DNA of 32,000 bases from an uncultured Nitrospiraceae bacterium (GCA_963705105.1 CAVPIW010000006.1:922989-954988); one strand, 5' to 3'; shown: positions 5,872-25,391, numbered from the stretch's first letter. The notes: generated by a model from the sequence alone, not told the origin. Numbers and translations are program-made.

Positions 5872-6086
5872 CGTTGTGAAAAGGCGGGGCGAAGCACTCT
5901 GAAAAGCAGTGACAGTGTGAGTGTGAGTGTCAGTGAAAGGAATCGTTCTTATATCGACGCTGCCGTCCTGGTATTCGTGACCTTGTTCCGACTGTCGACT
6001 GCCGACAATGACTTTAATGACTCAATGACTTAATGACTTGTGCGGTGGCATCGTCGCCCCGCCTTTCCGGAAGGAGTATGCAACGA
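5872..6086 (-). repeat. MITE-like intergenic element, copy 1 (inverted relative to the other copies)
   Basis: Near-identical to the copies at 14353, 19310, 23633 and 25174 when reverse-complemented. It lies between the rpsI terminator and the argC SD. Confidence 0.9.
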
Positions 6087-6115
6087 CAGTTTCTTTTCAA
6101 GAGGAGGGAACAAAA

Positions 6116-7156
6116 ATGCTGAAGGTTGCTATATGCGGGGGAAGCGGGTACACGGGAGCGGAGTTGTTGCGGATTCTTGCCCATCATCCCGAAGTGGAGA
6201 TCACCGCCGTCACGTCCGAGAAGTCCGCCGGCAAGAGGGTAACGGACCTCTTTCCCCATCTCCGCCGGTATCATGACCTCACCTATGAGGGATTGGACAA
6301 GTCCACGCTCCTGTCGAAGGCCGACCTCTTTTTCATGGCCCTGCCCCATGCCGCCTCGCAGGAGGCGGTGGACCTCTTCTTCCGCGAGGGCAGGAAGGTC
6401 ATCGATCTCTCCGCCGACTACCGCCTGACGGACCCCTCGGTCTATGAAGAATGGTACAAAACGCCGCATAACTGCCGGGAGACGCTGAAATCGGCCGTCT
6501 ACGGCCTGCCGGAACTCCACAGGGAGGAGATCGGGAAATCCTGTCTCATCGCAAACCCCGGGTGCTATCCTACAAGCGCCATCCTCGGTCTCTGCCCCGC
6601 CATTCAGCAATCGATCATCGATACCGGCAGGATCATCGTCGACTCTAAATCGGGCACGTCCGGCGCCGGGAGGAAGGCCGAAACGGCCTTCTCGTACTGT
6701 GAGGTCAACGAAGGGTTCAAGGCATACGGCATCGGCGTGCACCGTCACACACCCGAGATAGAGCAGGAGCTGTCCGGCATTGCAGGAAAGCCGGTCCGCA
6801 TCACCTTCACACCCCACCTCGTCCCCATGGACAGGGGCATCGTCTCGACCATATACGCGCCTCTCCTGAAAGACATCGACACCCCGGACGTCCTGTCCAT
6901 ATACAGGGACCGGTACGCGAATGAACCTTTCGTGACAGTCCTGGACGAGGGCAGATACCCGAACGCCAAGGACGTGCGGGGCACGAACGCCTGCATGATC
7001 GGCGTCAAGGTTGTGAAACGGACGGGGACGCTCGTCATCGTATCGGCCATCGACAACCTCGTCAAGGGCGCATCCGGGCAGGCCGTGCAGAACATGAACA
7101 TCCTGGCGGGATTCGGGGAGACGACGGCACTTGAGGCGATGGGGCTGTTTCCGTAG
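6116..7156 (+). CDS. argC: N-acetyl-gamma-glutamyl-phosphate reductase
   Basis: MLKVAICGGSGYTGAELLRILAHHPEVEI..., active-site region NPGCYPTS, SD GAGGAGGG upstream. The track ORF 6038-7156 was trimmed to ATG 6116. Confidence 0.93.
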   Translation: MLKVAICGGSGYTGAELLRILAHHPEVEITAVTSEKSAGKRVTDLFPHLRRYHDLTYEGLDKSTLLSKADLFFMALPHAASQEAVDLFFREGRKVIDLSADYRLTDPSVYEEWYKTPHNCRETLKSAVYGLPELHREEIGKSCLIANPGCYPTSAILGLCPAIQQSIIDTGRIIVDSKSGTSGAGRKAETAFSYCEVNEGFKAYGIGVHRHTPEIEQELSGIAGKPVRITFTPHLVPMDRGIVSTIYAPLLKDIDTPDVLSIYRDRYANEPFVTVLDEGRYPNAKDVRGTNACMIGVKVVKRTGTLVIVSAIDNLVKGASGQAVQNMNILAGFGETTALEAMGLFP

Positions 7157-7160
7157 CGGT

Positions 7161-7188
7161 ACGACAGTGTCAGTGAGAGTGTGAGTGG
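7161..7188 (-). repeat. solo GT-rich hexamer tract resembling the internal (CACTGA)n module of the MITE-like element
   Basis: ACGACAGTGTCAGTGAGAGTGTGAGTGG resembles GACAGTGTGAGTGTGAGTGTCAGTG of copy 1. No other part of the element is present here. Confidence 0.5.
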
Positions 7189-7194
7189 AATGGA

Positions 7195-7228
7195 GGGGGC
7201 GAGGCGAAACCTCGCCCCCTTGTTGTGT
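7195..7228 (+). terminator. hairpin terminator between convergent argC and the protease gene
   Basis: Perfect 10-bp stem GGGGGCGAGG/CCTCGCCCCC with loop CGAAA (7195-7219), followed by TTGTTGTGTG. No U-tract on the minus-strand side. Confidence 0.7.
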
Positions 7229-7242
7229 GAAGTGTCTGAAGC

Positions 7243-9879
7243 TTAAGGCGCGACGAAGCCGGTTGCCCAGAGGTAATAGCCGCTCAGACTCCCTGCAGGG
7301 GTCACGACCGTCAGCAGGAAATAGTTGCCCGTCGGGAAATAGTGGAGCGGGAAAGTCGCATAGAGATGCTCGTCGATGGGTCCCGTCGTATTGGACCTCC
7401 ACTTGGGCAACGGGAGGGCTGCCGGCTGGAGGCCCAGGTCCTCCCGGATCATCCAGATGAGATCCCCGCTAAGGGCGGGTGCGACCAGGGCAAGGTAAAT
7501 ATCCACAGGACCGGTGAATTCCGGGAACCCCACCCGCAGATTGAGCACACCGCCCTCAGGCGTCCCTCCCGTGAACGGCCGGGCGAGAGACGGATTGGGA
7601 TCGTAGACCGGCGCCGCCAACGGAAAATAGGTATCAATGAAAGCCCCCGTCGGCACCGCCATGGGGTTGCAGCCCGTCTCCGCAGCGCCGTGGGTCAGGT
7701 CGCCGCTGTAGTAAACCCAGGCCTTCGTTGTCCCCGAGGGCAGCCCGCTGACGACAAATGTGCCTTCGGCGCTGGCGTTCACGTACCGGATCTCCTTCGT
7801 GCCGCCAACGAGCAGTTCGACGGCAATCCTGGCGTTCGGGACTGCAGGGATGAGCCGCCCTGAGAGGATCGCGATCGGCGCCGCCACCGCCTGCCTTGCC
7901 TCGCATTCGATCCTCGTCCTGTTCACGAGATGCGTCCAGAGATCTACGCCGCCGATGGGGATGAAGGTGTCGGCATAGGGCACATAGGCCTCGATCTTCG
8001 GCTTCCCGATGAATCCGGGACGCTCGTCCATCTGCCTGGAATCGCGCGGATTTTCAGGTCTCCCCGACGGCAGGGCCATAAAGAAGACCGTCTCCTTGCC
8101 GCCCGGCGGCAGGTCCAGGGTTTCGGGCTCGACGATGACGGCCCATCCCGGAGGGATGTCCTTGACACTGAAGTGGACCGGCGTCCGGCCGTCGGTGAAG
8201 GGATTGAACACGGTGATCGACTGACCGGCGCCATCATAAGGACTGCCGGCGCTCGTGTCGAAGTGGCTGACGTTCTCCTGGGCCACATTATTCGCCGTGC
8301 TCAGCTCACCGGCGATGTCCTCGATCTCTGCCTTGATACAGGTGTGCTGTCCTACCGAAGGCTTCCAGATCACATAGTCCTCGACAGTGTCGCCGGCTGC
8401 GACGGTCGGGAAGATGATCGTCCCGAGAAACCCCCAGTCCGGTCCTGCATCACCCATGCCGGGAGGGTCGTTCTGGAACACCTGGACGCGTACGTTCGTG
8501 GCGACGCCGGGCCCGATGTTCCGTATCCGCACATAGACACGGTTGTCATGATCTACCCAGGCGTCGTCTCCGTTGCCCGTGGGATTCCCGCCGCCGTCTG
8601 TGTAGCGGTAGGTGTCGAAGCCGTTCTTTGCGCTGTCGATCCAGATATCGACTGTCTCATGGGGAGGCGCTCCCCAGGGGATGATCATGGGATCGGGTTT
8701 GGCCGACGGAGGCAGCAGGTACCGGATGCGGACGGTGTAATTGTTCCCCGTCTGGCTCAGAACGTCCACCGTGAGGTTCCGCGAGGGATCCGTAAAGGAT
8801 TCGCCGACGCCGAGGGGCGCCTGGTCGAGGTTCAACGCCGAGGGGTTCTCCAGCACGATACATTTCAGGATGTTCATGGGGTCTTCGTTGACGATGGAGA
8901 CGAGGACACCCTCGCTCGGCAGGTTCTCGTCGCCGCTTATCTGCCGCCGGTTTTCAATGACGTACCCGTTGAAGGGGGACCCGCTTGTGAAGGGGATCCT
9001 CACGATCTGCGTGCCCCCGGCTGTAAAGAGCTCCTGCGGTGCGATCGTTATCGTCCTGTCGATGTCGGCGCCCACGGGAGGCCCGACGGTCTCTATTCTC
9101 GGGGAGGCCGCGCCGGTCCATCCCGGTATCCATCCCCGCTGCGACTTCGCGTAGCCGATGAAGTGATTGATACCAGGGCTGAGCCCCATGATGTCCCAGG
9201 GAGTGATGACGTCACGGGTCAGGCCGGGGTTCCAGCGGATGTCACCGTAATGCGTCGGCAACCCCAGTTCGTGCCCCAGTTCATGGGCAGCCACGGAACC
9301 GGCCTGATCGAAATTCCGTGCCTCTCCGACCGTCGCGCCCAGCCATTCGTTGACGATCGCCATGGTCATGAACCGTTTTCCGACGGAGGAGCCGCCCTCG
9401 ACGAAATAGCTCTCGATCCCCTCATTGACCCGCCACCACCAGGGGCCGCCGCCCTGGCCGCCGAAACCGTCCCAGTTGGTGATGACGAGGACGCGGTCGT
9501 AGTTCGCCATATTGACGTCCGGATCGATGAGGTTGATGGCGTCCTGCCCCGTTTTGGAGAAGTCGTAGGACGCCGAGGCGTAGCCCAGGTTGTACCAGGT
9601 CCCGGCAGGGGACGTCTCGAAAATGAAATTCGTCTGGTTGAATGTTGCACCGTTGTAGAAAGTGTTGACCTCGTTGTTGAGAAGATTCACCCAGTCTGTG
9701 CAGGTGCCAAGCCTCGTCGTTGCATCATCGCTCCACCTCACACAGATGACGAGGACAGGCTGGTTCACGCCGATGTGGCTCCTCGACGCAGCATAGACAT
9801 CAGATACCGCTGCGACGAGAGACAGAACAACTGCCAGTACAAGAAACACCCGAAAACAGGATCGCTTCAATGCTCTCAT
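7243..9879 (-). CDS. large secreted zinc metalloprotease (HExxH), tentatively M6/InhA-like, with CARDB-like and C-terminal beta-sandwich regions
   Basis: ATG 9879 is preceded by AAGGAGGTG. Signal peptide MRALKRSCFRVFLVLAVVLSLVAAVSDVYA. Metal site AAHELGHELGLPTHYG. The track ORF was trimmed from 10008. The family assignment is from memory of M6 motifs. Confidence 0.8.
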   Translation of the reverse strand: MRALKRSCFRVFLVLAVVLSLVAAVSDVYAASRSHIGVNQPVLVICVRWSDDATTRLGTCTDWVNLLNNEVNTFYNGATFNQTNFIFETSPAGTWYNLGYASASYDFSKTGQDAINLIDPDVNMANYDRVLVITNWDGFGGQGGGPWWWRVNEGIESYFVEGGSSVGKRFMTMAIVNEWLGATVGEARNFDQAGSVAAHELGHELGLPTHYGDIRWNPGLTRDVITPWDIMGLSPGINHFIGYAKSQRGWIPGWTGAASPRIETVGPPVGADIDRTITIAPQELFTAGGTQIVRIPFTSGSPFNGYVIENRRQISGDENLPSEGVLVSIVNEDPMNILKCIVLENPSALNLDQAPLGVGESFTDPSRNLTVDVLSQTGNNYTVRIRYLLPPSAKPDPMIIPWGAPPHETVDIWIDSAKNGFDTYRYTDGGGNPTGNGDDAWVDHDNRVYVRIRNIGPGVATNVRVQVFQNDPPGMGDAGPDWGFLGTIIFPTVAAGDTVEDYVIWKPSVGQHTCIKAEIEDIAGELSTANNVAQENVSHFDTSAGSPYDGAGQSITVFNPFTDGRTPVHFSVKDIPPGWAVIVEPETLDLPPGGKETVFFMALPSGRPENPRDSRQMDERPGFIGKPKIEAYVPYADTFIPIGGVDLWTHLVNRTRIECEARQAVAAPIAILSGRLIPAVPNARIAVELLVGGTKEIRYVNASAEGTFVVSGLPSGTTKAWVYYSGDLTHGAAETGCNPMAVPTGAFIDTYFPLAAPVYDPNPSLARPFTGGTPEGGVLNLRVGFPEFTGPVDIYLALVAPALSGDLIWMIREDLGLQPAALPLPKWRSNTTGPIDEHLYATFPLHYFPTGNYFLLTVVTPAGSLSGYYLWATGFVAP

Positions 9880-10021
9880 GTAATGCACCTCCTTGCGATT
9901 AGAAAAAACAGGTTGTGTTTCCTGAAATCCCGCTTCATCCCCATGATCAAAAATACCTGTGCCGGGGTCAACAAAAGACCGACAAAAGTTCATACTCACG
10001 AATACCACAGAAAATGCCCAT

Positions 10022-10071
10022 TGTCAACAAAAAAATGTTCTCATCATCTGATATCCGATTTTTTGTTGACA
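10022..10071. promoter_or_regulatory. 13-bp perfect inverted repeat in a divergent intergenic region, each arm containing a TTGACA box
   Basis: TGTCAACAAAAAA (10022-10034) and TTTTTTGTTGACA (10059-10071) are exact reverse complements separated by 24 nt. Confidence 0.6.
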
Positions 10072-10094
10072 TCCCTGACTTTCATCCCTATACT
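10066..10094 (+). promoter_or_regulatory. sigma70-type promoter TTGACA-17 nt-TATACT
   Basis: TTGACA at 10066-10071, a 17-nt spacer and TATACT at 10089-10094, ~35 nt upstream of ATG 10129 with SD AAGGAGGG. Confidence 0.6.
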
Positions 10095-10128
10095 TGATGC
10101 AAGGTCACCAGAAAAAAGGAGGGTACAC

Positions 10129-10618: not shown

Positions 10619-10628
10619 GCATTTCTCA

Positions 10629-10657
10629 GCGAGGGACGGCCTGTCGTCGTCCCTCGC
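10629..10657 (+). terminator. stem-loop downstream of the secreted-protein gene (no U-tract)
   Basis: 10-bp perfect stem GCGAGGGACG/CGTCCCTCGC with a 9-nt loop. No T-run follows, so terminator function is uncertain. Confidence 0.35.
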
Positions 10658-10700
10658 CTGGTGACCTCCCCCCTTCCACTCCCATTCGACAGGCAAAGTC

Positions 10701-11055
10701 AACCTTATTGTTGCAATACACTCCCGGGAAAGGCGGAGCGACGATGCCACCGCAAGAGTCATTAAGTCATTGAGTCATTAAAGTCATTGTCGGCAGTCGA
10801 CAGTCGGAACAAGGTCACGAATACCAGGACGGGAAGGCTGATGTGGTGAAAAGCCTTTCCTCTAAGATACCTTGTTTATCCCCAGACCACCCTCTGCCGT
10901 GTCTATTGATACCGGAAGCCCGTCAGGCAACAGGCGCTGAACACCTTGCAATGTCTCATCATCGCATTGGAGAGGCTTTGAACTATATCTGCCTTCCCGG
11001 AGGCGCGTCGGTTTCAGCGGGGCCTTGAGGCGCTTCGCCCCGCCTTTCTATGCAA
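10701..11055 (+). repeat. MITE-like element, copy 3, variant with ~190-bp replacement module
   Basis: 10701-10837 matches the left two-thirds of the family and 11030-11055 matches the right terminal repeat (GCGCTTCGCCCCGCCTTTCTATGCAA). The stretch 10838-11029 is unrelated to the usual hexamer module. Confidence 0.8.
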
Positions 11056-11063
11056 GGTCAAAC

Positions 11064-13012
11064 CCATCTTCTACAGTTGGACCCGAAAAGCGCTCCGAAT
11101 CAGACATAAGAATCTATGAGAAACAGGGTGATATGAGGAGAGGAATTGGAAAGAAGCTCAAAACATAGTGCCACGTCATAGCCATTATAAGCTTGCCAAT
11201 AGGGATTAGAATGGGTATAATATTAATGTCATGTTCATCAGAATCAAACCATCCGGCCCCCGCTCCTATCTGCAGATCGTTGAAAGCCGATGGGAAAACG
11301 GCAAGGTCCGCCAGAAAGTCATCGCCACCCTGGGGCGTGTCGATAAACTCCGGGAATCGGGAGCTTTGGACAGCCTCGTACGCTCGGGGGCGCGGTTTTC
11401 AGAAAAGCTTGCCCTGCTTGATGCCTATGACAAGGGAGAGGTTCCGTCTGTGGGACAGCAAAAGATCGGACTGCCTCTGGTGTTTGGCCGACTATGGAAG
11501 GAACTCGGCATCCCGGACGTGATCACCCGCGTGCTGTCGCAGAGGAAGTATCAGTTTGCCGTGGAGAGGGCGATCTATCTGACGGTGCTGCACCGGCTCA
11601 GCGCATCGGGCTCTGACAGGGCGGCGGACAAGTGGAAGGACGACTACCGGATTGAGGCGGCGGAGGGGATCGAGCTGCACCACCTGTACCGGGCGATGGC
11701 ATGGTTAGGGGAGGAGTTGCCGGAGGACGACCAGGAAGGGGCGACACCCTTTGCCTGCCGGTGCACGAAGGACCTGATCGAAGAAGGGATCTTTGAGCGC
11801 CGGAGGGACCTGTTTACAGATCTCACCCTGGTGTTTTTTGACACCACGAGCATCTATTTTGAAGGAAATGGGGGAGAGGAGATCGGGCAGTTGGGCAACA
11901 GCAAGGACCACCGGCCTGACCTTCTGCAGATGGTGGTGGGTGTGATCATCGACAGCGCGGGTCGGCCGTTGTGCTGTGAGTTGTGGCCGGGCAACACGAC
12001 GGACGTCAAGAGCCTTCTTCCCGTCACCGAGAGATTACGCAAGCGGTTTGGGATCCAGCGGGTCTGTGTCGTGGCGGACCGGGGGATGATCAGCGCGGCG
12101 ACGGTCAAGGAGTTGCAGACGGGGGAGGTCCCGTACATCCTGGGCGCCCGGATGAGGAGACAGAAAGAGGTCACCCAGGAGGTGCTCAGCCGGGCGGGCA
12201 GGTATGAGGAAGTGTATCCCAAGGGTGCGGACAGCAAAGCGCCCTCACCGCTGAAAGTCAAGGACGTGCGTGTTGACGACAGACGGTACGTCGTCTGTTA
12301 CAACGAGGATCAGGCCAAGAAAGACGCTCTTGACCGGCAGAGTATCGTTGCCTCCCTGCGGGACAAACTGCAGCAGGGACACAAGACATTGGTGGGCAAC
12401 AAGGGGTACCGGAAGTACCTCAAGGCGACGGGGCAGAGGTTCGGGATCGATGAGGACAAGATCAAGGCGGAGGGACGGTATGACGGCAAGTGGGTCCTCA
12501 GGACGAACACGACACTGCCGGCGCGGGAGGTGGCGCTGCAGTACAAGCAGCTGTGGATGGTGGAGCAGATCTTCCGGAGCATGAAGAGCATCCTCAGCAC
12601 GCAGCCCATCTACCACAAGTGTGACGAGACGATCCGGGGGCATGTGTTCTGCAGTTTCCTTGCATTGGTGCTGATCAAGGAACTGCAGGGGCGGATGGAA
12701 AGGAAGGGGTGGCAGGCGGAATGGGCTGATGTGATCCGTGACCTGGAGAGGGTCGAAGAAGTGACGATCCGGACCGGTACGAAGGAGGTCCTTCTCCGGA
12801 GCGACCTCAAGGGACAAGCCGGCAAGGCGTTTCAGGCGGCGGGCGTGGCTGTGCCGCCGACAGTCAGGATACTGAATCAGACTGCATTGGACATGGAGAC
12901 GTCATGACAGTGAGCGTGAAGCTGACAAGGGGATTCCTAGTGCCACGCCCTTCTTGCGCCCTCATATCCCCTTGTTATAAGAAAGTTATTTTCTTGCTAC
13001 TGTAGAAGATGG
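11064..13012 (+). mobile_element. insertion sequence, IS4 superfamily (IS1634-like), apparently intact
   Basis: Terminal inverted repeats CCATCTTCTACAGT (11064-11077) and ACTGTAGAAGATGG (12999-13012). They are flanked by the direct repeat (G)GTCAAAC at 11056-11063 and 13012-13019. A single 558-aa transposase ORF lies inside. Confidence 0.85.
11231..12907 (+). CDS. DDE transposase, IS4 superfamily (IS1634-like)
   Basis: N-terminus MFIRIKPSGPRSYLQIVESRWENGKVRQKVIATLG. Candidate DDE residues lie in FFDTTSIYF, VVADRGMIS and YKQLWMVEQIFRSMKS (Y-R-E-K-like signature). Family recall is from memory. Confidence 0.85.
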   Translation: MFIRIKPSGPRSYLQIVESRWENGKVRQKVIATLGRVDKLRESGALDSLVRSGARFSEKLALLDAYDKGEVPSVGQQKIGLPLVFGRLWKELGIPDVITRVLSQRKYQFAVERAIYLTVLHRLSASGSDRAADKWKDDYRIEAAEGIELHHLYRAMAWLGEELPEDDQEGATPFACRCTKDLIEEGIFERRRDLFTDLTLVFFDTTSIYFEGNGGEEIGQLGNSKDHRPDLLQMVVGVIIDSAGRPLCCELWPGNTTDVKSLLPVTERLRKRFGIQRVCVVADRGMISAATVKELQTGEVPYILGARMRRQKEVTQEVLSRAGRYEEVYPKGADSKAPSPLKVKDVRVDDRRYVVCYNEDQAKKDALDRQSIVASLRDKLQQGHKTLVGNKGYRKYLKATGQRFGIDEDKIKAEGRYDGKWVLRTNTTLPAREVALQYKQLWMVEQIFRSMKSILSTQPIYHKCDETIRGHVFCSFLALVLIKELQGRMERKGWQAEWADVIRDLERVEEVTIRTGTKEVLLRSDLKGQAGKAFQAAGVAVPPTVRILNQTALDMETS

Positions 13013-13150
13013 GTCAAACAATACATTTTTTCGCAAAGCCGCAAAGAGCGCAAAGAAAGCCGGAGTGCAGGCACGTTGAAACTCCCCTCCGGAATGGCGC
13101 ATTATAAAAGCCTGTCGATTATCCATTCTCATACACGGGGATAACGAACA

Positions 13151-14347
13151 ATGAAAAAAAAGCTGACAGTGAAGATTCCGAAGGGATACCTCTTTTCAGC
13201 CGTCGAGGCGGCCGTCAAGAAGCCCGGAAGAAAAGACGTGGCCCTCATCGTTTCCGAATGCGAGGCCGTCATGGCCGGCATGTTCACGATGAATACCGTC
13301 AAGGCTGCGCCGGTGAAGCTGGACATGAGGCGCATCAGGACCGGCAGGGGACAGGCCATTGTCGTCAACAGCGGCAATGCCAATGCCTGCACGGGCGAAC
13401 GGGGCATGCGGGACGCCAAAGAGATGGCCGTACTCACCGGCCGCGCGCTCAGGATGAAATCCTCCGCCGTCTACGTCTGCTCCACGGGCGTCATCGGCAC
13501 TCCCCTGCCCATGGAGAGGGTCGGGTCCGCAATACCCGGACTGGCCGCAGCGCTCGGGCAGGGGACCTTTCAGGACGTTGCCGCCGCCATAATGACGACC
13601 GACACATTCCCGAAGTTGTTCAGCAAAACGGTAAGGATCGGGAGCAAGGATGTCACTATTGCGGGTGTCTGCAAGGGGGCGGGCATGATCAGCCCGCACA
13701 TGGCGACGATGCTCTGCTTCATCATCACCGATGCGCTCATCGACCACGGGTCCCTCGACGCCTCTCTCAGGAGCGCCGTCGCAACGTCCTTTCACAGGAT
13801 CACCATCGACGGAGACATGTCGACGAACGACACCGTCCTCGTCATGGCCAACGGCATGGCGGGAAACGCCCCCATCATGACGGGCTCCCGGTCGTACCGG
13901 ATCTTCGCGTCGGCGCTCTCGGACGTGGCCTCTACGCTGGCGGCAATGGTCGCGCGCGACGGCGAGGGCGCGACGAAACTCGTCGAGATCGAGGTCAGGA
14001 ATGCCTTCAGCAAGGCCGAGGCAGAGAGGGGGGCCTTTGCCGTGGCGAATTCGCTTCTCGTCAAGACCGCTATTTACGGCAATGACGCCAACTGGGGAAG
14101 GATCATGGCAGCCCTCGGCTATTCCGGCATCCGCATGCGGGAGGACAGGACGGACATTTCCCTGAACGGTCTCAGGATCGTCAGCAGGGGTCTTGGAACG
14201 GGCAGGGACGCCGATGCAAATGAGCGGCTCAGGGCGAAAGAGGTGAAGATCGTCGTCGACCTTCGCATCGGTAAGGGATCGGCGAAGGTGCTCACCTGTG
14301 ACATGACGGAGGATTACGTCAAGATCAACGCCGAGTACAGGACTTAA
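13151..14347 (+). CDS. argJ: bifunctional ornithine acetyltransferase/N-acetylglutamate synthase
   Basis: 398 aa. Contains KGAGMISPHMATMLCFIITDA (autoprocessing ATML site) and the C-terminus DLTEDYVKINAEYRT-like motif (CDMTEDYVKINAEYRT). Confidence 0.93.
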   Translation: MKKKLTVKIPKGYLFSAVEAAVKKPGRKDVALIVSECEAVMAGMFTMNTVKAAPVKLDMRRIRTGRGQAIVVNSGNANACTGERGMRDAKEMAVLTGRALRMKSSAVYVCSTGVIGTPLPMERVGSAIPGLAAALGQGTFQDVAAAIMTTDTFPKLFSKTVRIGSKDVTIAGVCKGAGMISPHMATMLCFIITDALIDHGSLDASLRSAVATSFHRITIDGDMSTNDTVLVMANGMAGNAPIMTGSRSYRIFASALSDVASTLAAMVARDGEGATKLVEIEVRNAFSKAEAERGAFAVANSLLVKTAIYGNDANWGRIMAALGYSGIRMREDRTDISLNGLRIVSRGLGTGRDADANERLRAKEVKIVVDLRIGKGSAKVLTCDMTEDYVKINAEYRT

Positions 14348-14352: not shown

Positions 14353-14581
14353 AACCTTATCGTTGCAACACACTCCCGGGAAAGGCGGAGCGATGATGCC
14401 ACCGCAAAAGTCATTAAGTCATTGAGTCATTAAAGTCATTGTCGGCAGTCGACAGTCGGAACAAGGTCACGAATACCAGGACGGGAAGGAAGCGTCGATA
14501 TAAAAACGATTCCTTTCACTGACACTGACACTCACACTGTCACTGTTTTTCAGAGCGCTTCACCCTGTCTTTCTGCACAAC
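14353..14581 (+). repeat. MITE-like element, copy 4
   Basis: Starts 6 nt after the argJ stop and ends 14 nt before the moeA stop (convergent genes). The right terminal repeat is degenerate (CTTCACCCTGTCTTTCTGCACAAC). Confidence 0.9.
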
Positions 14582-14594
14582 TTGCAGGGGAACG

Positions 14595-15830
14595 TCAGAA
14601 CAGACGGACCTGCACGGTCTCGCCTTCATCGACGCCGAGTTTGGCCGGCGGGACCACGACGATGCCGTCGGCCTTCACCAGGGTCGTGATGAGGCCCGAC
14701 TTTCCGAGGACCGGCACCGCGACGACCACACCGTCCCGATCTTCCAGGGCCACCCGGACATGGTCTTCCCTGCCCGCAGCGGAGGCGACGCCCTTGGCCA
14801 TCGTCGCAGTCACCTGCGCGGAGACGGGCAGCCTTTCCTCAACCCCGCCCAGTCGATCGAGCAGGGGACGGATGAAAAGGTCAAAACAGACAAAGATGGC
14901 CGCCGGGTGACCGGGAAGTCCGAAAACGGGCTTCCCCGACACGATCCCGCCGATGACCGGCTTTCCCGGCTTGAGCGACGCCCCGTGGAAGAGGACGCCC
15001 GGCGTGCCGGCTTCATTGATGATGCGGGCCGTCATGTCCTTTATCCCCGCCGAAGTCCCTCCACCGACGAGAATGATGTCCGAATCCCGGATCGACTGCC
15101 CGATCACCGCGCCGATATCATCGGATCGGTCGGAAATGATCCCTTTCCGGACGGGGATTCCGCCGTGTTCGGCGATGAGACCGGCAAGCGTGTATGAGTT
15201 GATATCCCGCACCTGGCCGGGTCCGGGCGTGCTGCCCGCCGGGACGATCTCGTCACCCGTCGCGATGATCGAGACGACAGGTTTCCGGAAAACGCCGACC
15301 CTCGTCATCCCCAGGCCGGCAAGGGCGCCGATGTCCTGGGGACGGAGCCTGCGGCCTTTCATGAGCACCGTCTCGCCCCGCCTCACGTCGTCTCCGCGCT
15401 GAATGACGTTTTCATAAGGGGCGACGGCATGCACCACCTCGATCATGTCATCGGAGACCGCCTGGGTGTGCTCCACCATGACCACCGCGTCGGCGCCGTC
15501 GGGCAGCATGCCGCCCGTGGGCATGCGCGCCGCCTCTCCCGGTCCGAGGGTGAAGCCGGGAGCAGCTCCCATGAATACCTCTCCCGTGACAGTGATATAG
15601 ACCGGGGCGGTCTCCCTGGCGCCGAAGGTGTCCGCCGCCCTGAGGGCGAAACCGTCGACGGTGGAACGCGAAAAGGCGGGAAGGTCTTCCGGCGACAGGA
15701 AATCAGAAGCAAGGACGCGCCCGCAGCAGTCCTCCAGCTCCAGGGTCTCCGTCCCGGGCGACGTGGTCGCGAGACCGGAGATGATGAGGTGAAGGGCCTC
15801 GGAGGGGGAACGGTAGGTCTTGTCGAACAT
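14595..15830 (-). CDS. moeA: molybdopterin molybdotransferase
   Basis: 411 aa with typical MoeA sequence (SPEDLPAFSRSTVDGFALRAADT..., GGTSAG, LPGHPAA). Confidence 0.9.
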   Translation of the reverse strand: MFDKTYRSPSEALHLIISGLATTSPGTETLELEDCCGRVLASDFLSPEDLPAFSRSTVDGFALRAADTFGARETAPVYITVTGEVFMGAAPGFTLGPGEAARMPTGGMLPDGADAVVMVEHTQAVSDDMIEVVHAVAPYENVIQRGDDVRRGETVLMKGRRLRPQDIGALAGLGMTRVGVFRKPVVSIIATGDEIVPAGSTPGPGQVRDINSYTLAGLIAEHGGIPVRKGIISDRSDDIGAVIGQSIRDSDIILVGGGTSAGIKDMTARIINEAGTPGVLFHGASLKPGKPVIGGIVSGKPVFGLPGHPAAIFVCFDLFIRPLLDRLGGVEERLPVSAQVTATMAKGVASAAGREDHVRVALEDRDGVVVAVPVLGKSGLITTLVKADGIVVVPPAKLGVDEGETVQVRLF

Positions 15831-18632: not shown

Positions 18633-19277
18633 TTAGCCTTCGGCCTCCTCTGCTTTCTTGCCCTTCTTGATAATTTCGGGCTCCGCCGTCTCCACCTCCT
18701 CAACAACAGGAGCAGCGGCCTCTTCCTTGATCGCCGTCACCGTGACGATAAGCTCCTCGGGATCGGTGAGCACCCTGATCCCTTCGGCGAGTTTCAGATC
18801 GCCCACATGAATGGACTGCCCGATGCCGAGGGGGCTGACGTCGACATCGACGTGGCCCGGGATCTTGTCGGGCAGACACTCGATCTCGATTTCCCGGATC
18901 CCGTGCTGAAGCAGCCCGCCGTCCCTCTTGACGCCGACGGCTTCGCCGCTCGTCACAATATGCACCGCGATTTTCAGCATCTCCGTCGCCAGGATCTCCT
19001 GAAAATCGACATGGATCAGGCTGCTCGTTATCGGGTCGATCTGGTAATCCTTCATGATCGCCTGCCGCGTCTTGTCGGCGAAATTGAGATTGACCACGAC
19101 CTGCTCCCCCCCGGACCTGCTGATAAAGGACGTCAGCTCACGCTTCGAGATCTGTATGGGTTGGGACGTCCCTTCCCTGTAAAGGACCGCGGGGATGACG
19201 TTGTTCCTCCTCAGGTCGCGCGCGGCGCCCTTGCCCTTTCTCTCCCTCTTTTCGACATCAAGTGTCACTCTTTCCAT
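18633..19277 (-). CDS. rplY: 50S ribosomal protein L25/general stress protein Ctc
   Basis: 214 aa, N-terminus RERKGKGAARDLRRNNVIPAVLY, acidic/Lys-rich C-terminal tail. It sits in the usual position upstream of pth. Confidence 0.9.
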   Translation of the reverse strand: MERVTLDVEKRERKGKGAARDLRRNNVIPAVLYREGTSQPIQISKRELTSFISRSGGEQVVVNLNFADKTRQAIMKDYQIDPITSSLIHVDFQEILATEMLKIAVHIVTSGEAVGVKRDGGLLQHGIREIEIECLPDKIPGHVDVDVSPLGIGQSIHVGDLKLAEGIRVLTDPEELIVTVTAIKEEAAAPVVEEVETAEPEIIKKGKKAEEAEG

Positions 19278-19309: not shown

Positions 19310-19575
19310 ACCGTATCGTTGCATGGCTACCCCGGAAAGGCGGAGCGAAGATGCCACCGCACAAGTCATTAAGTCATTGAGTCATTAAAGTCATTGTCGG
19401 CAGTCGACAGTCGGAACAAGGTCACGAATACCAGGACGGCAGCGTCGATATAAAAACGATTCCTTTCACTGACACTGACACCCACACTGACACTGTTTTT
19501 CAGAGCCCTTTCACTGACACTGACACTCACACTGTCACTGTTTTTCAGAGCGCTCTGCCCTGTCTTTTCAGCGCC
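19310..19575 (+). repeat. MITE-like element, copy 5, with internal 45-bp tandem duplication
   Basis: Family sequence plus two 45-nt units (19464-19508 and 19509-19553) that differ at 3 positions. It lies between the rplY start and the prs stop. Confidence 0.9.
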
Positions 19576-19579
19576 CGCA

Positions 19580-20521
19580 TCAGACGAAAAGCGAGCTCAC
19601 CGACGACTCGTCGTGTATCCTCTCGATCGCGTCGCCGAGCAGAGATGCAACGCTCAGGACTTTAAGCTTCCTGCAAATGACGGCCTTGTCTTCAAGGGGA
19701 ATCGTGTCCGTCGCGATGACCTCCTCGAGAGCCGACGCATTGATCTTGTCGATCGCCGGTCCGGACAGAACGGCGTGGGTACATGCCGCAAGCACCCGGT
19801 TCGCCCCGCCTTCCTTCAATGCGAAGGCCGCCTGTGCCATCGTCCCGGCCGTATCGATCATGTCGTCGAGAATGACGGCGTCTTTCCCCCGGACGTCGCC
19901 GATGACGTGCATCACCTTTGACACATTGGCTGCCTCCCGTCGCTTGTCGATGATGGCGAGATGGGCGTCGAGCCTCTTCGCAAAGGCCCTGGCACGCTCC
20001 ACACCTCCCGCGTCGGGCGAGACGACGACGAGGTCCCTGTATTCACCCCGCTTGATAAACTCGAGCAGGACCGGCGCCGCATAGAGATGATCGACAGGTA
20101 TGTTGAAGAAGCCCTGGATCTGCCCGGCATGGAGATCGATCGTCAGGATCCGGTGCGTCCCCGCCGCTGTGAGAAGATCGGCGATCAGCTTCGACGTGAT
20201 CGGTACCCTGGGCTGGACCTTCCTGTCCTGACGCGCATACCCGTAATAAGGAATGACGGCGGTGATCCTCCGGGCCGAGGCCCTCTTCAGGGCGTCGATC
20301 ATGATAAGCAGTTCCATGATGTTCGTATTCACGGGCGTGCAGGTGGACTGGATGACGAAAACGTCGTAGCCGCGGATGTTCTCGTTGATCTGGACCTGGA
20401 TCTCTCCGTCGCTGAACGTGTTGACCATCGCGTCCGCAAGGGGTATCCCAAGGTGCTTGCTCACCTTCAGGGCGAGGGCTCCGTTCGAATTACCGGTCAA
20501 CAACTTAATGCCGTTTGCCAT
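19580..20521 (-). CDS. prs: ribose-phosphate pyrophosphokinase
   Basis: [20 protein letters not shown]..., [34 protein letters not shown] lies before ATG 20521. The track ORF was trimmed from 20545. Confidence 0.93.
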
Positions 20522-20694: not shown

Positions 20695-20752
20695 TATAGT
20701 CGTCTGGAACACGCGATATGCCCCGTGATCAACATCGGGACATCTCCGGCCC

Positions 20753-21619
20753 TCACAGGGACCGGTCCGTCAGGGTTTTCACCACCCTGCTCCAGCAGTC
20801 GGGGAACCTCCCCGCCGCCCTGCCCGCATCTTCGCTGCTGTCGAAAAGGCCGAAAAGGGCGGACCCGCTGCCGCTCATGAGGGCAGCCGCAGCGCCCGCA
20901 TCGAGAAGCCGCTTCTTCAGATCCCCGGCGACGGGATGGTCGTCGAAGACGGTCTCTTCAAAGTCATTGTGCAGCAGGGATGCCAGGCGGGACCTGTCCC
21001 GCGATTCAATGTACCGGTAAAGTAAGTTGATATTATGATATTCATCCCTTTTGTTTGTCAACGCAGCCGGCCCCCTGTTCAGCCTCCGGTAAGCCTCCGC
21101 CGTCGACACGGACAGGGCCGGTTTGACGATCAGGAGATCATATGATACGGTAGCCGGCAGCGGCTCCAGTTTCTCCCCCCTCCCTGCCGCGATCGCGAGA
21201 GGGCCGGCCATGAAGAACGGCACGTCCGAACCGAGTGACGCCCCGAGGGCCATGAGCTCCGGATCGGGCAGGGACAAGCCCCACAGGGCGTTCAGCCCCC
21301 GGAGAGTCGTCGCCGCATCGCTGCTCCCGCCGCCCAGCCCCGCGCCGGCGGGGATCTCCTTTCGCAGTGTGATCCGCGCGCCTTCGCGACAACCCGTGTA
21401 TTCCCGCAGCGCCCGGGCGGCCCGGCAGACGAGATTGTCCTCTGCAGGCAGCGCCATGTCCGACTCCAGGTGAAACGTGCGGGAGGGCAGAAAGATCAGG
21501 ACATCGCTGAGACTGACGCGCTGCATCAGGGACAGGATATCGTGATATCCGTCATCCCGCCTGCGCAGAACGTAGAGGGTCCAGTTTATTTTTGCGGGTG
21601 CTTCGAGCGTCAGGGTCAT
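20753..21619 (-). CDS. ispE: 4-diphosphocytidyl-2-C-methyl-D-erythritol kinase
   Basis: APAKINWTLYVLRRRDDGYHDI..., GHMP kinase motif IPAGAGLGGGSSDAA. Confidence 0.9.
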   Translation of the reverse strand: MTLTLEAPAKINWTLYVLRRRDDGYHDILSLMQRVSLSDVLIFLPSRTFHLESDMALPAEDNLVCRAARALREYTGCREGARITLRKEIPAGAGLGGGSSDAATTLRGLNALWGLSLPDPELMALGASLGSDVPFFMAGPLAIAAGRGEKLEPLPATVSYDLLIVKPALSVSTAEAYRRLNRGPAALTNKRDEYHNINLLYRYIESRDRSRLASLLHNDFEETVFDDHPVAGDLKKRLLDAGAAAALMSGSGSALFGLFDSSEDAGRAAGRFPDCWSRVVKTLTDRSL

Positions 21620-21645
21620 CGATCCTGAGGAAACGGGAGAGGGGC

Positions 21646-23412
21646 TCAGCGCTCCCCGGATTGACGAAGCTCCTTCAGCTTCTGCTCGACCCGGTCTTTC
21701 AGCCCCTCCTCCTTCTCGTGCTGGCGGAGGGACTTTTCATAACTTTCGATCGCCTTCGCGGGATCTCCCAGGGTCTTGTACACATCGCCGAGATGCTCAA
21801 AGAGAACGGGGTCGTCCTTCACCAGCTCCTGGGCGCGCAGCAGGGTCTTGAGAGCGTCGTCATGCCTCCCGAGCCTGAAATAGACCCAGCCGAGACTGTC
21901 GATGATGTACCCGCTGTCCGGCTTCAGATCAAGGGCCCGCTGAATGAGGGCAAGGGCTTCCTCGAGGTTGATCCCCTTGTCCGCATAGGAATAGCCGAGA
22001 TAGTTGAGGGCATCGGCATGCTTCGGGTTCAGCTCGATCGTCTTTTTGAGTGTGGCCACCAGCTCATCGAACTTCCCCGTTTTTTCATACACGACGGCCA
22101 TGAGAAAGTTGAGCTCGTCATTGTCGGGGAACTTTCCGAGCGCTCCCGTCACCACCTCACCGGCCTTGCCGTAGTCCTTGAGCGATATGTATGCATTCGC
22201 CAGAAAGGCATAGATATCAGGTTTATCCTTCTCGAAGGTGAGCACCTCCTCGTAAATCCGTGCCGCTTCAGCGTACTTGTTCTGCTTGCCATAGACCGAA
22301 GCCAGGGTGAGAAAAGCGCTCACATTTTTCGGATCTGCAGCAAGGATTTTTTTCAGTTCCGCCGCCGCCTCTTCATATCGCTGCAGCTCGGCCAGGACAA
22401 GGGCGAGGTAATACCGGGCCGACGCGTTGTCCGGGCGGGCTTCGAGTACGAGCCTGAACTCGTCGATCGCCTTGTCGAACTGGTTCTCCTGGACATACAG
22501 GAGGCCCAGCCGCTGGTGCAGGTCGATGTTCAGAGGCATGTCCTTCGCCGCCTCTTCGAGCTCCCTGATCGCCTTTTCGTAAGACTTGTCGGCCACGTAA
22601 AGCTGGGCGAGACGCTCCCGGGCATAGAGATTGTGAGGGTTGACGACAAGCACCTTCTTGTAATACTCCTCAGCCTCAGCGGGTTTGCCCCTGAGCTCGT
22701 TGATTATGCCGAGATTGAAATAGGCGGCATCGAAGGAGGGGTTGATCCCGATGATGGTGATGAAGCGCTCTTCAGCCTTTTGATATTTCTTGTCCTCGAG
22801 ATCCATCGAACCGAGGTAATACAGGGCCATGATATTTTCAGGCTCCTTTACGAGCACGTCGTCGAAGACCGCCCGGGCCTTCCCGCTCTCCCTTTTCGTC
22901 GCGTACATCGCGCCGAGATGGAGCCTCGCATCTATCCTCTCAGGGTCTTTTGAGATCACCTTTTCGTAGAGTGGAATCGCTTCGTCGAGCTTCTTCTGTG
23001 AGCCGTAGAGCTCGGCCAGCAGCATGAGGGCCGGGATGTGATCGGACGTCTCCTGCAGGACCTTCTCGAGTCCCGCGACGGCGTCCGATATCCTGCCCAG
23101 CTTGACGTACATCCGGCAGATCTGCGTCTTGACATGAGCTGACGACGGATCGATCTCGAGCACCTTCCCGTAATGTTCCAGGGCCGCCTCCCACTTCCCC
23201 CTGATCTCCGCTTCATATCCCAGAAAGTATTCGAGATAGGCCGACTGCACGTACTTCTCCGCTGTGTCAGAGCGCTGCGGTTTCGTTATTTCGGCATAAA
23301 AAGCGAAGACGGGGCCGCTCTGTGCAGTCAGAATGACGGACAGAAAGAGGGACAGCGAGACGATATATGCAGACATCAATAGTCTTCTCCGGCGAAAGGA
23401 TTGATCTATCAT
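21646..23412 (-). CDS. TPR-repeat protein with N-terminal signal/anchor
   Basis: 588 aa of repeated 34-aa TPR-like units (…A..Y..vL..dP.n..A...La.lY…). N-terminus MIDQSFRRRRLLMSAYIVSLSLFLSVILTAQS. An alternative start is at 23376 (SD GGAGAAG). Confidence 0.85.
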   Translation of the reverse strand: MIDQSFRRRRLLMSAYIVSLSLFLSVILTAQSGPVFAFYAEITKPQRSDTAEKYVQSAYLEYFLGYEAEIRGKWEAALEHYGKVLEIDPSSAHVKTQICRMYVKLGRISDAVAGLEKVLQETSDHIPALMLLAELYGSQKKLDEAIPLYEKVISKDPERIDARLHLGAMYATKRESGKARAVFDDVLVKEPENIMALYYLGSMDLEDKKYQKAEERFITIIGINPSFDAAYFNLGIINELRGKPAEAEEYYKKVLVVNPHNLYARERLAQLYVADKSYEKAIRELEEAAKDMPLNIDLHQRLGLLYVQENQFDKAIDEFRLVLEARPDNASARYYLALVLAELQRYEEAAAELKKILAADPKNVSAFLTLASVYGKQNKYAEAARIYEEVLTFEKDKPDIYAFLANAYISLKDYGKAGEVVTGALGKFPDNDELNFLMAVVYEKTGKFDELVATLKKTIELNPKHADALNYLGYSYADKGINLEEALALIQRALDLKPDSGYIIDSLGWVYFRLGRHDDALKTLLRAQELVKDDPVLFEHLGDVYKTLGDPAKAIESYEKSLRQHEKEEGLKDRVEQKLKELRQSGER

Positions 23413-23432
23413 GGACAGATCTTCAGCCCTGC

Positions 23433-23464
23433 AGAAAAAGAAGAGGGGTCTCGACGAGACCCCC
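23433..23464 (-). terminator. intrinsic terminator of the mini-gene
   Basis: The minus strand reads GGGGTCT-CGTCG-AGACCCC followed by TCTTCTTTTTCT. It starts 24 nt after the mini-ORF stop. Confidence 0.75.
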
Positions 23465-23487
23465 GATGTAATCCAAAGCCCCGGTGT

Positions 23488-23550
23488 TTAGCAGGAGCTC
23501 TTGCACTTGCAGGTTGTTGATACCTTCTTTGAAACTTTCCTGATCACCAT
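23488..23550 (-). CDS. 20-aa Lys/Cys-rich small ORF MVIRKVSKKVSTTCKCKSSC (candidate small protein or RiPP precursor)
   Basis: Too short for the ORF track. ATG 23550 has GGAGGTG 12 nt upstream, its own extended -10 promoter, and a terminator right after the TAA at 23488-23490. Confidence 0.4.
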   Translation of the reverse strand: MVIRKVSKKVSTTCKCKSSC

Positions 23551-23605
23551 GTTGACTCTTCACCTCCCCTTCAAAGGGAATACGAAGGCTTCATGCCCCG
23601 CTGAC

Positions 23606-23614
23606 ATTATACCA
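23606..23614 (-). promoter_or_regulatory. extended -10 promoter TGGTATAAT
   Basis: The minus strand reads ...GATTTATGGTATAATGTCAGC..., a perfect TATAAT with an upstream TGn. The -35 position coincides with the edge of MITE copy 6. Confidence 0.5.
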
Positions 23615-23632
23615 TAAATCAGGTTCTTCTTT

Positions 23633-23855
23633 ACCTTATCGCTGCAATACATTCCCGGGAAAGGCGGAGCGAAGATGCCACCGCAAGAGTCATTAAGTCA
23701 TTGAGTCATTAAAGTCATTGTCGGCAGTCGACAGTCGGAACAAGGTCACGAATACCAGGACGGCAGCGTCGATATAAAAACGATTCCTTTCACTGACACT
23801 GACACTCACACTGACACTGTTTTCAGAGTGCTTCGCCCCGCCTTTTCATGCAACG
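23633..23855 (+). repeat. MITE-like element, copy 6
   Basis: Full-length copy. Its right terminal repeat CTTCGCCCCGCCTTTTCATGCAACG ends 8 nt from the radical SAM stop codon (23863-23865). Confidence 0.92.
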
Positions 23856-23862
23856 CCCCGGA

Positions 23863-25038
23863 TCATGCCGGAAAATCCTTGAGCCCGTAAGCGGAGCATT
23901 TGTAAGGATCGCGTCTCCCCTGCCCCAAAGATGTCTCCGCCCTGAAACGGCAGCCCCCACGGCATACATCGATGTGGCCGCAGGAGATGCGCGCACATTC
24001 CAGCTCATCGAGACGGACGGGACTGACCCGGCCCCACGCTGCGCGGAGCCCCCCGCTTACCTTCCCTGCCGGTTTGTCCCCGTAGAAGGCGCATTTGGCG
24101 ACCGTTCCGTCCGCCAGGACCGAGGCGAGATGGAGACCGCAGCCGTAACCTTTACCGCCGCCATGGAGCCCTCCCCCGAATCCATAGGAAAAATAAGGGC
24201 CGGCGATCTCGGGAGGGACCTGGAAGAGCGCGTTTTCAGCGAAGCTTCCCGAGACGCAGGGGACATCGACGGTCCAGTCCCTGATGCCCATGCCCCTGAA
24301 AAGGAGATCCATTCCGTCGAATTCCTCCAGGTTTTCCCGGTGCACCATCGTGGCGACCGAGACGGACATCCCTTCAGAAAGGGCGTCACCGATCCTGTCC
24401 ATCACCTTACCGTATGTCCCCTTCCCCCTCAGGGCCTCGTGGCCGTGCTCCATGCCGTCGACACTGAACTGGATCTCGTCGACGTTGAGCCCCCTGATGA
24501 GGTCCTTCCGGAGCAGGAGACCGTTTGTAAAGAGGACCTTCCTGAAGGCGTAAAACGGCAGATCGTTGTTGAACTCCTGAAAGCTGCTGTGCAGGAGGGG
24601 CTCACCGCCGCTGATGAGGAGCCGCAGCCCCTGCATCTCCTCGAATTCGCGGAGCACGCGACGCAATGAGTCGATGGGGAGTTCTCTGTCCGAAGGCTTT
24701 CCGATGTAACAATGCCTGCACCGGAGGTTGCACTTCGTCGTGATCTGGAGCTCGAGGTACCGCAGGGACGGGACGGGGGATTTCAGCAGAGGCGGTCTCC
24801 TGACGGCAACACGCCTCTCCGTCAGCAGGCCCTCGGAAAGACAGTCGTCGATAAAAGACCGGTCGGCCTGCGAGCCGTCGCACCCTTCGTCGGAGGCGCA
24901 TCCCTGCAGGAAGGAGAAGGCACTGTCGTCGACCTCATAGAGTTCGTCATTCTCAATATCATAGACAGAGGGTTCTTCAAGCCGTTTAAGGGCACATCTG
25001 TCTGAAAGATAGTATCGCACCATGTATTCTACCATCAT
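23863..25038 (-). CDS. radical SAM/SPASM domain protein with N-terminal PqqD/RRE-like extension (peptide-maturase-like)
   Basis: CNLRCRHC (CxxxCxxC) follows a ~95-aa N-terminal region. C-terminal Cys cluster: GCGLHLASVLADGTVAKC, CARISCGHIDVCRGGC and YKC, a SPASM-like pattern. Confidence 0.85.
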   Translation of the reverse strand: MMVEYMVRYYLSDRCALKRLEEPSVYDIENDELYEVDDSAFSFLQGCASDEGCDGSQADRSFIDDCLSEGLLTERRVAVRRPPLLKSPVPSLRYLELQITTKCNLRCRHCYIGKPSDRELPIDSLRRVLREFEEMQGLRLLISGGEPLLHSSFQEFNNDLPFYAFRKVLFTNGLLLRKDLIRGLNVDEIQFSVDGMEHGHEALRGKGTYGKVMDRIGDALSEGMSVSVATMVHRENLEEFDGMDLLFRGMGIRDWTVDVPCVSGSFAENALFQVPPEIAGPYFSYGFGGGLHGGGKGYGCGLHLASVLADGTVAKCAFYGDKPAGKVSGGLRAAWGRVSPVRLDELECARISCGHIDVCRGGCRFRAETSLGQGRRDPYKCSAYGLKDFPA

Positions 25039-25151
25039 CCCTCAGCATCGGGGATCATGGTACAGCGATGCGAAATGCTTGCCCCTTCCGACACCAGGAC
25101 CATGAGGGGGATCGCTTCAGCACTCAAGAAGAGACGGATCGGCGGCCTCAT
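25035..25151 (-). CDS. hypothetical 38-aa upstream ORF overlapping the radical SAM start (ATGA); doubtful
   Basis: MRPPIRLFLSAEAIPLMVLVSEGASISHRCTMIPDAEG. Its stop TGA overlaps the rSAM ATG. There is only a weak SD-like GGTGGA 2 nt before the ATG. The longer track ORF runs into the MITE. Confidence 0.2.
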   Translation of the reverse strand: MRPPIRLFLSAEAIPLMVLVSEGASISHRCTMIPDAEG

Positions 25152-25173
25152 AGTCCACCGGGGCAGCGAGATA

Positions 25174-25391
25174 AACCTTATCGTTGCAATACACTCCCGG
25201 GAAAGGCGGAGCGAAGATGCCACCGCAAGAGTCATTAAGTCATTGAGTCATTAAAGTCATTGTCGGCAGTCGACAGTCGGAACAAGGTCACGAATACCAG
25301 GACGGCCGCGTCGATATAAAAACGATTCCTTTCACTGACACTCACACTGTCACTGTTTTTCAGAGCGCTTTGTCCCGCCTTTGCATGCAAC
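25174..25391 (+). repeat. MITE-like element, copy 7
   Basis: Full-length copy with one hexamer unit fewer than copies 4 and 6. It lies between the rSAM upstream region and the high-GC block. Confidence 0.92.

Follow-up and report, generated by a model that had tools for sequence, protein, structure and literature searches.

The stretch of DNA analysed here (hereafter the window) comprises 32,000 nt from an uncultured Nitrospiraceae bacterium (GCA_963705105.1, CAVPIW010000006.1:922989-954988), in which genes such as rpsI, argC, argJ, moeA and prs are interspersed with copies of a small non-coding repeat. Repeat finding and alignment identified six copies, five on the plus strand and one inverted, with lengths of 223–355 bp that sum to 1,538 bp, or ca. 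4.8% of the window, to which the copy counts given below refer. The six copies had already been reported in an initial annotation made from the sequence alone, and we recovered all of them within ca. 2–10 nt of the positions given there. Our results indicate that the repeat is probably a lineage-specific, non-autonomous DNA transposon, forming a superfamily of miniature inverted-repeat transposable elements (MITEs) in an uncultured bacterium that, among named relatives, is closest to Nitrospirota/Thermodesulfovibrionia. The copies (c1 to c6) and a probable fragment are as follows:

c1, 5863-6089, minus strand: short form of 227 bp, located between the rpsI terminator and the argC ribosome-binding site and antisense to both genes; flanked by TTTC at 5859-5862 and 6090-6093 (GAAA/GAAA in the orientation of the element)
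c2, 10703-11057, plus strand: long form of 355 bp, with the core and an additional module of ca. 171 nt; flanked by TCAA at 10699-10702 and 11058-11061
c3, 14355-14590, plus strand: short form with its own deletion junction (CCAGGACGGGAAGGAAGCGTCG) and a decayed right arm
c4, 19311-19579, plus strand: short form between prs and rplY/ctc, antisense to both
c5, 23634-23861, plus strand: short form, used as the reference copy, ending 1 nt before the stop codon of a radical-SAM gene; left tip 23634-23648, left arm 23658-23674, 90-nt core 23674-23763, in which the GTCATT units occupy 23689-23719 and the box 23744-23763; then the hexamer tract at 23791-23819 and the right arm at 23831-23847
c6, 25176-25398, plus strand: short form, hexamer tract one unit shorter; flanks TAAA and TTAA
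Probable fragment, 7160-7230, minus strand: hexamer tract in reverse complement (CAGTGTCAGTGAGAGTGTGAGTG) with a compact GC hairpin after it, directly 3' of the argC stop codon

The copies had been described as near-identical, and this holds for a core of ca. 110 nt, invariant in all six copies of the alignment, but not for the end regions, which differ between copies by up to ca. 25–30%. The core motifs GTCATTNNGTCATTNNGTCATT and GGTCACGAATACCAGGAC have exactly six matches each in the window, where dinucleotide shuffles lead one to expect 0.00 and 0.03, and the 17-nt arm motif described below is confined to the six copies, save for one chance match with three mismatches in prs. As originally proposed, every copy is intergenic and they often abut stop codons, with those of argJ (14347), moeA (14595), prs (19580) and the radical-SAM gene (23863) being adjoined. 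For instance, c3 occupies the entire spacer of the convergent argJ and moeA stop codons, and c6 neighbours the start of the radical-SAM gene and the stop of a small ion-channel-like gene (25537-25986, minus strand). Their orientation is mixed, because c1, c4, c5 and c6 are antisense between co-directional genes, c2 is in sense orientation and c3 lies between convergent stops; it is therefore not the orientation of a promoter, leader or terminator unit.

The terminal inverted repeats (TIRs) that had been proposed are real but reach further out than initially noted, to tips of the type CCTTATCGTTGCA... and ...GG. The tips CC...GG were defined after aligning all forms, which include elements with another interior (type B) from the related genomes presented below. 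The left tip, CCTTATCGTTGCA(A)T, is well conserved, and the right tips are more variable: GCAACAGAAAGG in c6 and in a type B element (locus L124), GCAACGCCCCGG in c5, GCAACTGCCGGG in another type B element (L121), GCAAGG in c2 and CAACGAACGACAGG in c1. Written as reverse complements, those of c6, c5 and c1 read CCTTTCTGTTGCATG, CCGGGGCGTTGCATG and CCTGTCGTTCGTTG, respectively. The termini also contain 17-nt GC-rich inverted arms, GGAAAGGCGGGGCGAAG ca. 25 nt inside the left tip and CTTCGCCCCGCCTTT directly inside the right tip. Between them, the five interior modules originally described are all present, namely four GTCATT units, CAGTCGACAGTCGG, GGTCACGAATACCAGGACGG, CGTCGATATAAAAACGAT and a (CACTGA)n tract with a T-run, except that c2 is devoid of the last two: it has neither the CGTCGATAT box nor the hexamer tract, and carries ca. 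200 nt of different sequence instead.

To evaluate mobility, we compared the window with five further assemblies, reached through cluster members of its proteins:

GCA_023156085.1 (JALMRU010000003.1; loci L121 and L122), the sister genome: 87-95% identity, syntenic with window positions 1827-25019
GCA_035562495.1 (L119): 88-93% identity to the window
Logan ERR11561443 (L123): 99.9% identity to the window
A JGI assembly (L124): 96% identity to the window
A second JGI assembly (L125): 90% identity to the window

The c1 site is cleanly empty in L121 (GGCCTTTTTGTTTT^TCTGCAAGAGG), directly after the rpsI terminator; therefore, the 227-bp unit was inserted in its entirety, together with its ends, in the lineage of the window, and it is also found in the independent Logan assembly. 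The c2 element is absent from L121 and has an orthologue in L119 (709-1070), a long form without the neighbouring insertion sequence (IS) described below. The c4 orthologue in L122 (11730-12102) is a full long form, indicating that c4 is an old insertion that lost the additional module, and the c5 site in L122 contains 39 nt of unrelated or degenerate sequence. Other sites contain different interiors. At the c3 site, in the spacer of argJ and moeA, L119 shows a type B interior with the same kind of ends, L121 contains a 55-bp solo end, and L125 contains the same end as L121 followed by a third interior (ATTAGACAGCAGACAATAGAC...). At the c6 site in L124, the flank identity of 96% reaches into the right arm and is found again from the left end onward, with a type B interior between them; a diverged GTCATT fragment of three units adjoins this element, and the gene beyond is hisB instead of the radical-SAM gene. 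In all, the family is wider than initially noted and includes long and short forms as well as other interiors (types B, C and mini forms) behind the same ends. GTCATT copies number one in 33 kb of the sister genome versus six in the window, and other members of the superfamily in L121 are a type B element at 330-589, two mini forms and the solo end. The mini members, of ca. 55–75 bp, consist of the same tip and one arm (L121 13468-13525 and 14217-14290; L119 1-60), and are not found at the corresponding places of the window.

Short-read contigs of the relatives break within elements (the start of L123 and the end of L125), as expected of a high-copy repeat. The copies are not assembly artefacts, a possibility raised at the outset, because the independent assemblies L119, L122, L123 and L124 carry elements at the same places. 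Together, these comparisons indicate that copies have been gained and lost recently.

We then compared the four flanking nucleotides outside the CC...GG tips, left versus right, where each pair has a probability of 0.005 of matching perfectly by chance. All four positions match in c1 (GAAA/GAAA), c2 (TCAA/TCAA) and the type B element of L121 (TTAA/TTAA), and three of the four match in the type B element of L119 (TTAC/TTAT) and in c6 (TAAA/TTAA). Three perfect matches among ca. eight independent insertions are hard to obtain by chance, which makes a good, if not airtight, case for a 4-bp duplication at A/T-rich targets. An 8-bp duplication at c1 (GAAAAGAA versus GAAAACAA) was also considered and dropped, since 4 bp fits c2 and the type B element of L121 too.

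The long copy in L122, with up to ca. 375 bp, holds every module of the short form plus the module of ca. 171 nt, which is located between CCAGGACGG and CGGCGTCGATAT; hence, the short form of ca. 223–236 bp is an internal-deletion derivative of the form of ca. 360–375 bp, and it has multiplied in this genome. The deletion junction is common to c1, c4, c5 and c6 (CCAGGACGGC, followed by AGCG, or CGCG in c6) and differs in c3 (GGACGGGAAGGAAGCG). The loss of a hexamer unit in c6 and an internal 45-bp tandem duplication in c4 (19462-19506 and 19507-19551) are typical slippage. Copy c1 is a mosaic, whose left end and CACAAG variant match c4 and whose right end (GAGTGCTTCGCCCCGCCTTTTCA) matches c5.

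The initial annotation had proposed a dense, undescribed, TIR-bounded MITE-like family, and the empty and filled sites and the target-site duplications back this proposal. The element is small and non-coding, with TIRs, 4-bp duplications and dispersed copies that are present or absent at orthologous sites, as is characteristic of MITEs, and we conclude that the superfamily is real and previously undescribed. It stands out for the density of its copies, for compound termini behind which the interiors are interchangeable, and for stronger conservation of the core than of the ends. We propose that a DDE transposase encoded elsewhere in the genome would bind the tips and move the element in trans, with insertion occurring preferentially just downstream of genes. 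Copies would then diversify by slippage in repeat tracts of 6–8 nt, by internal deletion, and by recombination or gene conversion through their shared ends; these exchanges between copies would explain the swapped interiors and the mosaic structure of c1.

Several observations weigh against a non-autonomous transposon. Target-site duplications are not found at the older copies c3 and c4 (0 of 4 positions) and c5 (TTTA/ATCA, 2 of 4), and the significance of the 4-bp matches is somewhat inflated because the tips were picked after viewing the flanks. An autonomous element with CCTTATCGTTGCA tips was not found in the ca. 75 kb of the window and the fetched loci. Also, the core is 97–99% identical between orthologues, with ends that are 72–76% identical and neutral sites that are 10–13% diverged, which is unusual for a selfish MITE.

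This last point was examined in two comparisons. Between c2 and its L119 orthologue, the core differs at 1 of 90 positions (98.9% identical), versus 13.3% of the argJ fourfold sites (P ca. 4e-5) and 8–10% of the spacer outside the element; the module differs at 4 of 171 positions (97.7% identical), and the identity of the ends falls within the range just given. Between the window and GCA_023156085.1, the core differs at 2–3 of 89 positions (P 0.005–0.017), versus 10.1% of fourfold sites overall (3.5–19.6% by gene); the module differs at a neutral 9.6% and the left end, in c4 versus L122, at 1 of 39 positions. Conservation beyond that of neutral sites is consistently seen in the core but not in the module, and in at least one old copy (c2) the ends have decayed at the neutral rate or faster. 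As the cause of the conservation of the core, we favour gene conversion in which young copies overwrite old ones via their common ends, combined with exchange between lineages, a reading that would account for the interior swaps and the mosaic structure of c1 as well. Purifying selection acting on the core is considerably less likely.

The GTCATT repeats had been initially considered iteron-like and suggestive of a protein-binding or RNA function, in favour of which we found the conservation of the core. At the gathering thresholds of Rfam 15, only the tRNA-Gln passes in the window and no match involves the element, and permissive Rfam scans of c2 and c5 retrieved only chance matches with E above 3. 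Promoter-like and terminator-like sites do not exceed those in shuffled sequences and none falls inside the elements; likewise, no fit to the sigma-54 or sigma-70 consensus was seen by eye at the element ends. The arms could not form a standard terminator, as they enclose 150–300 nt. Folding of a single copy gives a z-score of ca. -1.9 on either strand, which is essentially the long imperfect palindrome. RNAalifold analysis of the five short copies produced 57 pairs with no compensatory changes and a positive, that is, unfavourable covariation term, in a test that is weakened by the near-identity of the copies. Differences in the arms are mostly G:C to A:T transitions giving G-U or A-C pairs; by eye, only one arm pair shows a double change, from G-C in type A, the interior of the window, to A-T in the type B element of L119.

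The claim that the element encodes no protein was borne out, because the candidate open reading frames (ORFs) are interrupted in orthologues or differ between forms, and none of them survives as a conserved ORF across forms or genomes. We rejected as coding a 9-codon ORF at the left arm, where it follows GGAG-N5-ATG, an ORF of 61 aa within the module, which has a stop codon in L122, and a type B ORF that is open through L124 but frameshifted in L119. An antisense ORF of 36–38 codons with a hydrophobic centre (VSVSERNRFYIDAAVLVFVTLFRLSTADNDFNDSMT), on the minus strand of the core of c1, c4, c5 and c6, is unlikely to be a gene: it lacks a Shine-Dalgarno sequence, begins with GTG within the hexamer tract, carries a frameshift in c3 and shows another N-terminus in the long forms.

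Could the element be primarily a functional module, of RNA or of protein-binding repeats, whose GTC-phased core is selected and merely spread by MITE-like termini? As such, it might sequester an RNA- or DNA-binding protein, acting as a sponge or decoy, or stabilise mRNA 3' ends. The excess conservation of the core in both comparisons, its invariance in all six copies of the window, even in old ones with decayed ends, and the frequent position right after stop codons would fit such a module. Still, we consider it rather unlikely: the Rfam, promoter, terminator, covariation and folding results speak against it, the mixed orientation implies that neighbouring transcripts would carry either strand, and substitution of other interiors for the core at the same sites has no apparent ill effect. 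Moreover, the module of 171 nt has diverged almost neutrally (9.6%) in one comparison and is conserved (2.3% divergence) in the other, a behaviour that fits recent conversion or exchange better than uniform selection. A particular version, to which we give slightly less credence still, is that the 90-nt GTC-phased core (four GTCATT units, GTCGNCA units and the GGTCACGAATACCAGGACGG box) is a selected RNA, or an array bound by a host or transposon protein, on a MITE chassis that exchanges cargo A, B and C at fixed sites. If true, this would be a cargo-carrying MITE system and not a decaying selfish repeat.

The swapped interiors might also suggest that the ends are fixed recombination sites, at which a site-specific recombinase exchanges interiors A, B and C as cassettes without transposition of whole units. 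The c6 site, with orthologous ends and type A in the window where L124 has type B, and the argJ-moeA spacer, with three different interiors in four genomes, are what such exchange would leave. However, the swaps require no dedicated enzyme if homologous recombination takes place across the 40–50 bp that the ends have in common, no recombinase gene is nearby, and the c1 insertion brought its own ends into a site that has none in the sister genome; in addition, long and short ends are oppositely oriented at the c3 site between genomes, which fits independent insertion. We thus regard a cassette system as very improbable. A hairpin mechanism, either that of repetitive extragenic palindromic (REP), BIME or REPIN-like palindromes moved by a RAYT, an HUH tyrosine transposase, or that of the IS200/IS605 type, has marginally less in its favour. 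REP units are self-palindromic, of 20–40 nt, with a GTAG head, REPINs measure ca. 100 nt, and they are associated with a RAYT gene and produce no target duplication. The elements described here resemble them in being extragenic and abundant, in that the short form is an imperfect palindrome over most of its length, and in that the sister genome contains further occurrences of the GC-rich arms, in solo or mini versions. But they are 223–375 bp long with 4-bp duplications at young copies, neither arm is self-complementary, the GTAG/CTAC head motif is absent, and neither a RAYT gene nor a TnpA gene was found across the window and the fetched loci (ca. 75 kb). A non-autonomous transposon moved in trans remains our preferred reading.

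The mobilising enzyme of the element is not in the window, as had been proposed. The only transposase there (11231-12907; NF033559, E=1e-115) belongs to an IS1634-family IS (11064-13013) with perfect 14-bp TIRs (CCATCTTCTACAGT) that are unrelated to the repeat and a 7-bp duplication, GTCAAAC. This IS sits 6 nt past the right tip of c2 and is a recent insertion, because it is absent from L119 and L121.

Among known families, IS1380 elements have tips that begin with CC. They make target duplications of 4–5 bp (PMC12116815), a range that includes the 4 bp found here, and members of the family, such as ISEcp1 and ISPme1, misrecognise their right ends, tolerating divergent ones (PMC9330008). The 4-bp duplications and the variable right ends of the repeat weakly point by analogy to an IS1380-like enzyme, which should be taken as a lead and not as a claim of membership: no IS1380-type transposase or IS with a CCTTATCGTTGCA tip was seen, and there is no demonstrated similarity of the tips to the ends of ISEcp1. 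An IS6 origin was also suspected from the TTGCA motif. Members of IS6/IS26 have GG tips, a cTGTt...caaa motif in an inverted repeat of 14–20 bp and an 8-bp duplication (PMC7986276), and this origin was ruled out by the CC tips, the motif TCGTTGCA instead of CTGTTGCAAA, and the 4-bp duplications.

The element resembles other bacterial MITEs, such as Correia/NEMIS of Neisseria, Nezha of cyanobacteria and Chunjie of Geobacter, in being small, non-coding and multi-copy, with TIRs and short target duplications, present or absent among relatives, intergenic or tolerated within operons, and without an internal transposase. Unlike them, its interior consists of three phased short-period repeat tracts, its termini are compound (a 15-nt tip and a 17-nt arm ca. 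25 nt inward), its core is better conserved than its ends and it has no known parent IS; nor was sequence similarity found in Rfam, plasmids, phages, viral contigs or the JGI 20-mer scan. Its modular variation, in hexamer tract length, the 45-bp duplication, the optional 171-nt module and the alternative interiors, recalls the modular build and variable numbers of internal units of BOX in Streptococcus pneumoniae and of BIMEs in enterobacteria. These have neither target duplications nor transposon-like tips, whereas this element has both, and there is no sequence relationship. Enterobacterial repetitive intergenic consensus (ERIC) sequences, or IRUs, are likewise imperfect palindromes in transcribed intergenic DNA, with internal indel variants and a conservation across species above that expected of junk DNA. 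They are ca. 127 bp long, come from another phylum and share no sequence similarity with the element; to our knowledge, their mobility has never been tied to target duplications.

Searches beyond the related genomes did not retrieve the element. The long form gave no BLAST match against plasmids and phages, and the 20-mer GGTCACGAATACCAGGACGG was absent from viral contigs and had only one chance match, inside a coding ORF, in JGI metagenome contigs. A scan of a genome collection with the pattern GTCATTNNGTCATTNNGTCATT, which proved too loose, showed the element in none of 118 loci among the matches listed. This pattern has matches in many Mucilaginibacter and Chitinophagaceae genomes (loci L004, L007, L015, L019 and others), often as two matches 24 nt apart, which points to what appears to be an unrelated tandem repeat with a period of 8 nt. 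In the literature, nothing relevant was found on MITEs in Nitrospirota.

The additional fragment mentioned in the initial annotation is likely the hexamer tract and GC hairpin at 7160-7230, with the structure GGGGGCGAGG-CGAAA-CCTCGCCCCC-TTGTTG and a T-rich tail (GGGGGCGAGGCGAAACCTCGCCCCCTTGTTG). The fragment is probably old, judging from its location within a block that aligns with L121, and it may be what is left of a collapsed element, now acting as a terminator.

The genes identified in the window include:

radA-like gene
thiD
rpsI, 5397-5789, plus strand
argC, 6116-7156, plus strand
argJ, 13151-14347, plus strand
moeA, 14595-15830, minus strand
pepA
rplY/ctc, 18633-19277, minus strand
prs, 19580-20521, minus strand
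tRNA-Gln
ispE
Gene for a TPR protein
Gene for a radical-SAM protein, 23863-25038, minus strand
Gene for a membrane-fusion protein
Gene for an AI-2E transporter

The best non-self homologues of ArgJ are ca. 70% identical, and the named ones come mostly from Nitrospirota/Thermodesulfovibrionia; the NCBI record for GCA_023156085.1 assigns this genome to a Desulfobacterales bacterium. Positions 1-1930 of the window show no synteny with the sister genome or with a further locus, L126. Two ORFs in this part of the window, at 369-1790 (473 aa) and 1933-2616 (227 aa), did not match any Pfam or NCBIfam family. The 227-aa protein has a homologue in L126, in which the region beyond differs and which ends short of the c1 site. 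By gene, the fourfold-site divergence between the window and L121/L122 was 3.5% for pepA, 5.1% for ispE and 19.6% for prs, a wide spread that suggests recombination between lineages in this region. Genes in L121/L122 are often split, with Prs of 162 aa, IspE of 176 aa, ArgC of 179 aa and pepA in three pieces, suggesting uncorrected indel errors in GCA_023156085.1.

In practical terms, the element fragments short-read assemblies of relatives and sits at synteny breakpoints, and it needs to be masked before calling intergenic RNAs or regulatory motifs in these genomes. For the biology of the group, it represents a MITE superfamily whose recent multiplication took place in an uncultured lineage that has been little studied and is related to Nitrospirota, and its interest would become much greater only if selection on the core were demonstrated. 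It also offers a small natural experiment: comparing orthologous sites that contain old or young copies, long or short forms, or exchanged interiors allows one to ask whether selection or gene conversion maintains the unusually conserved interior of a bacterial MITE, a question long raised for ERIC as well.

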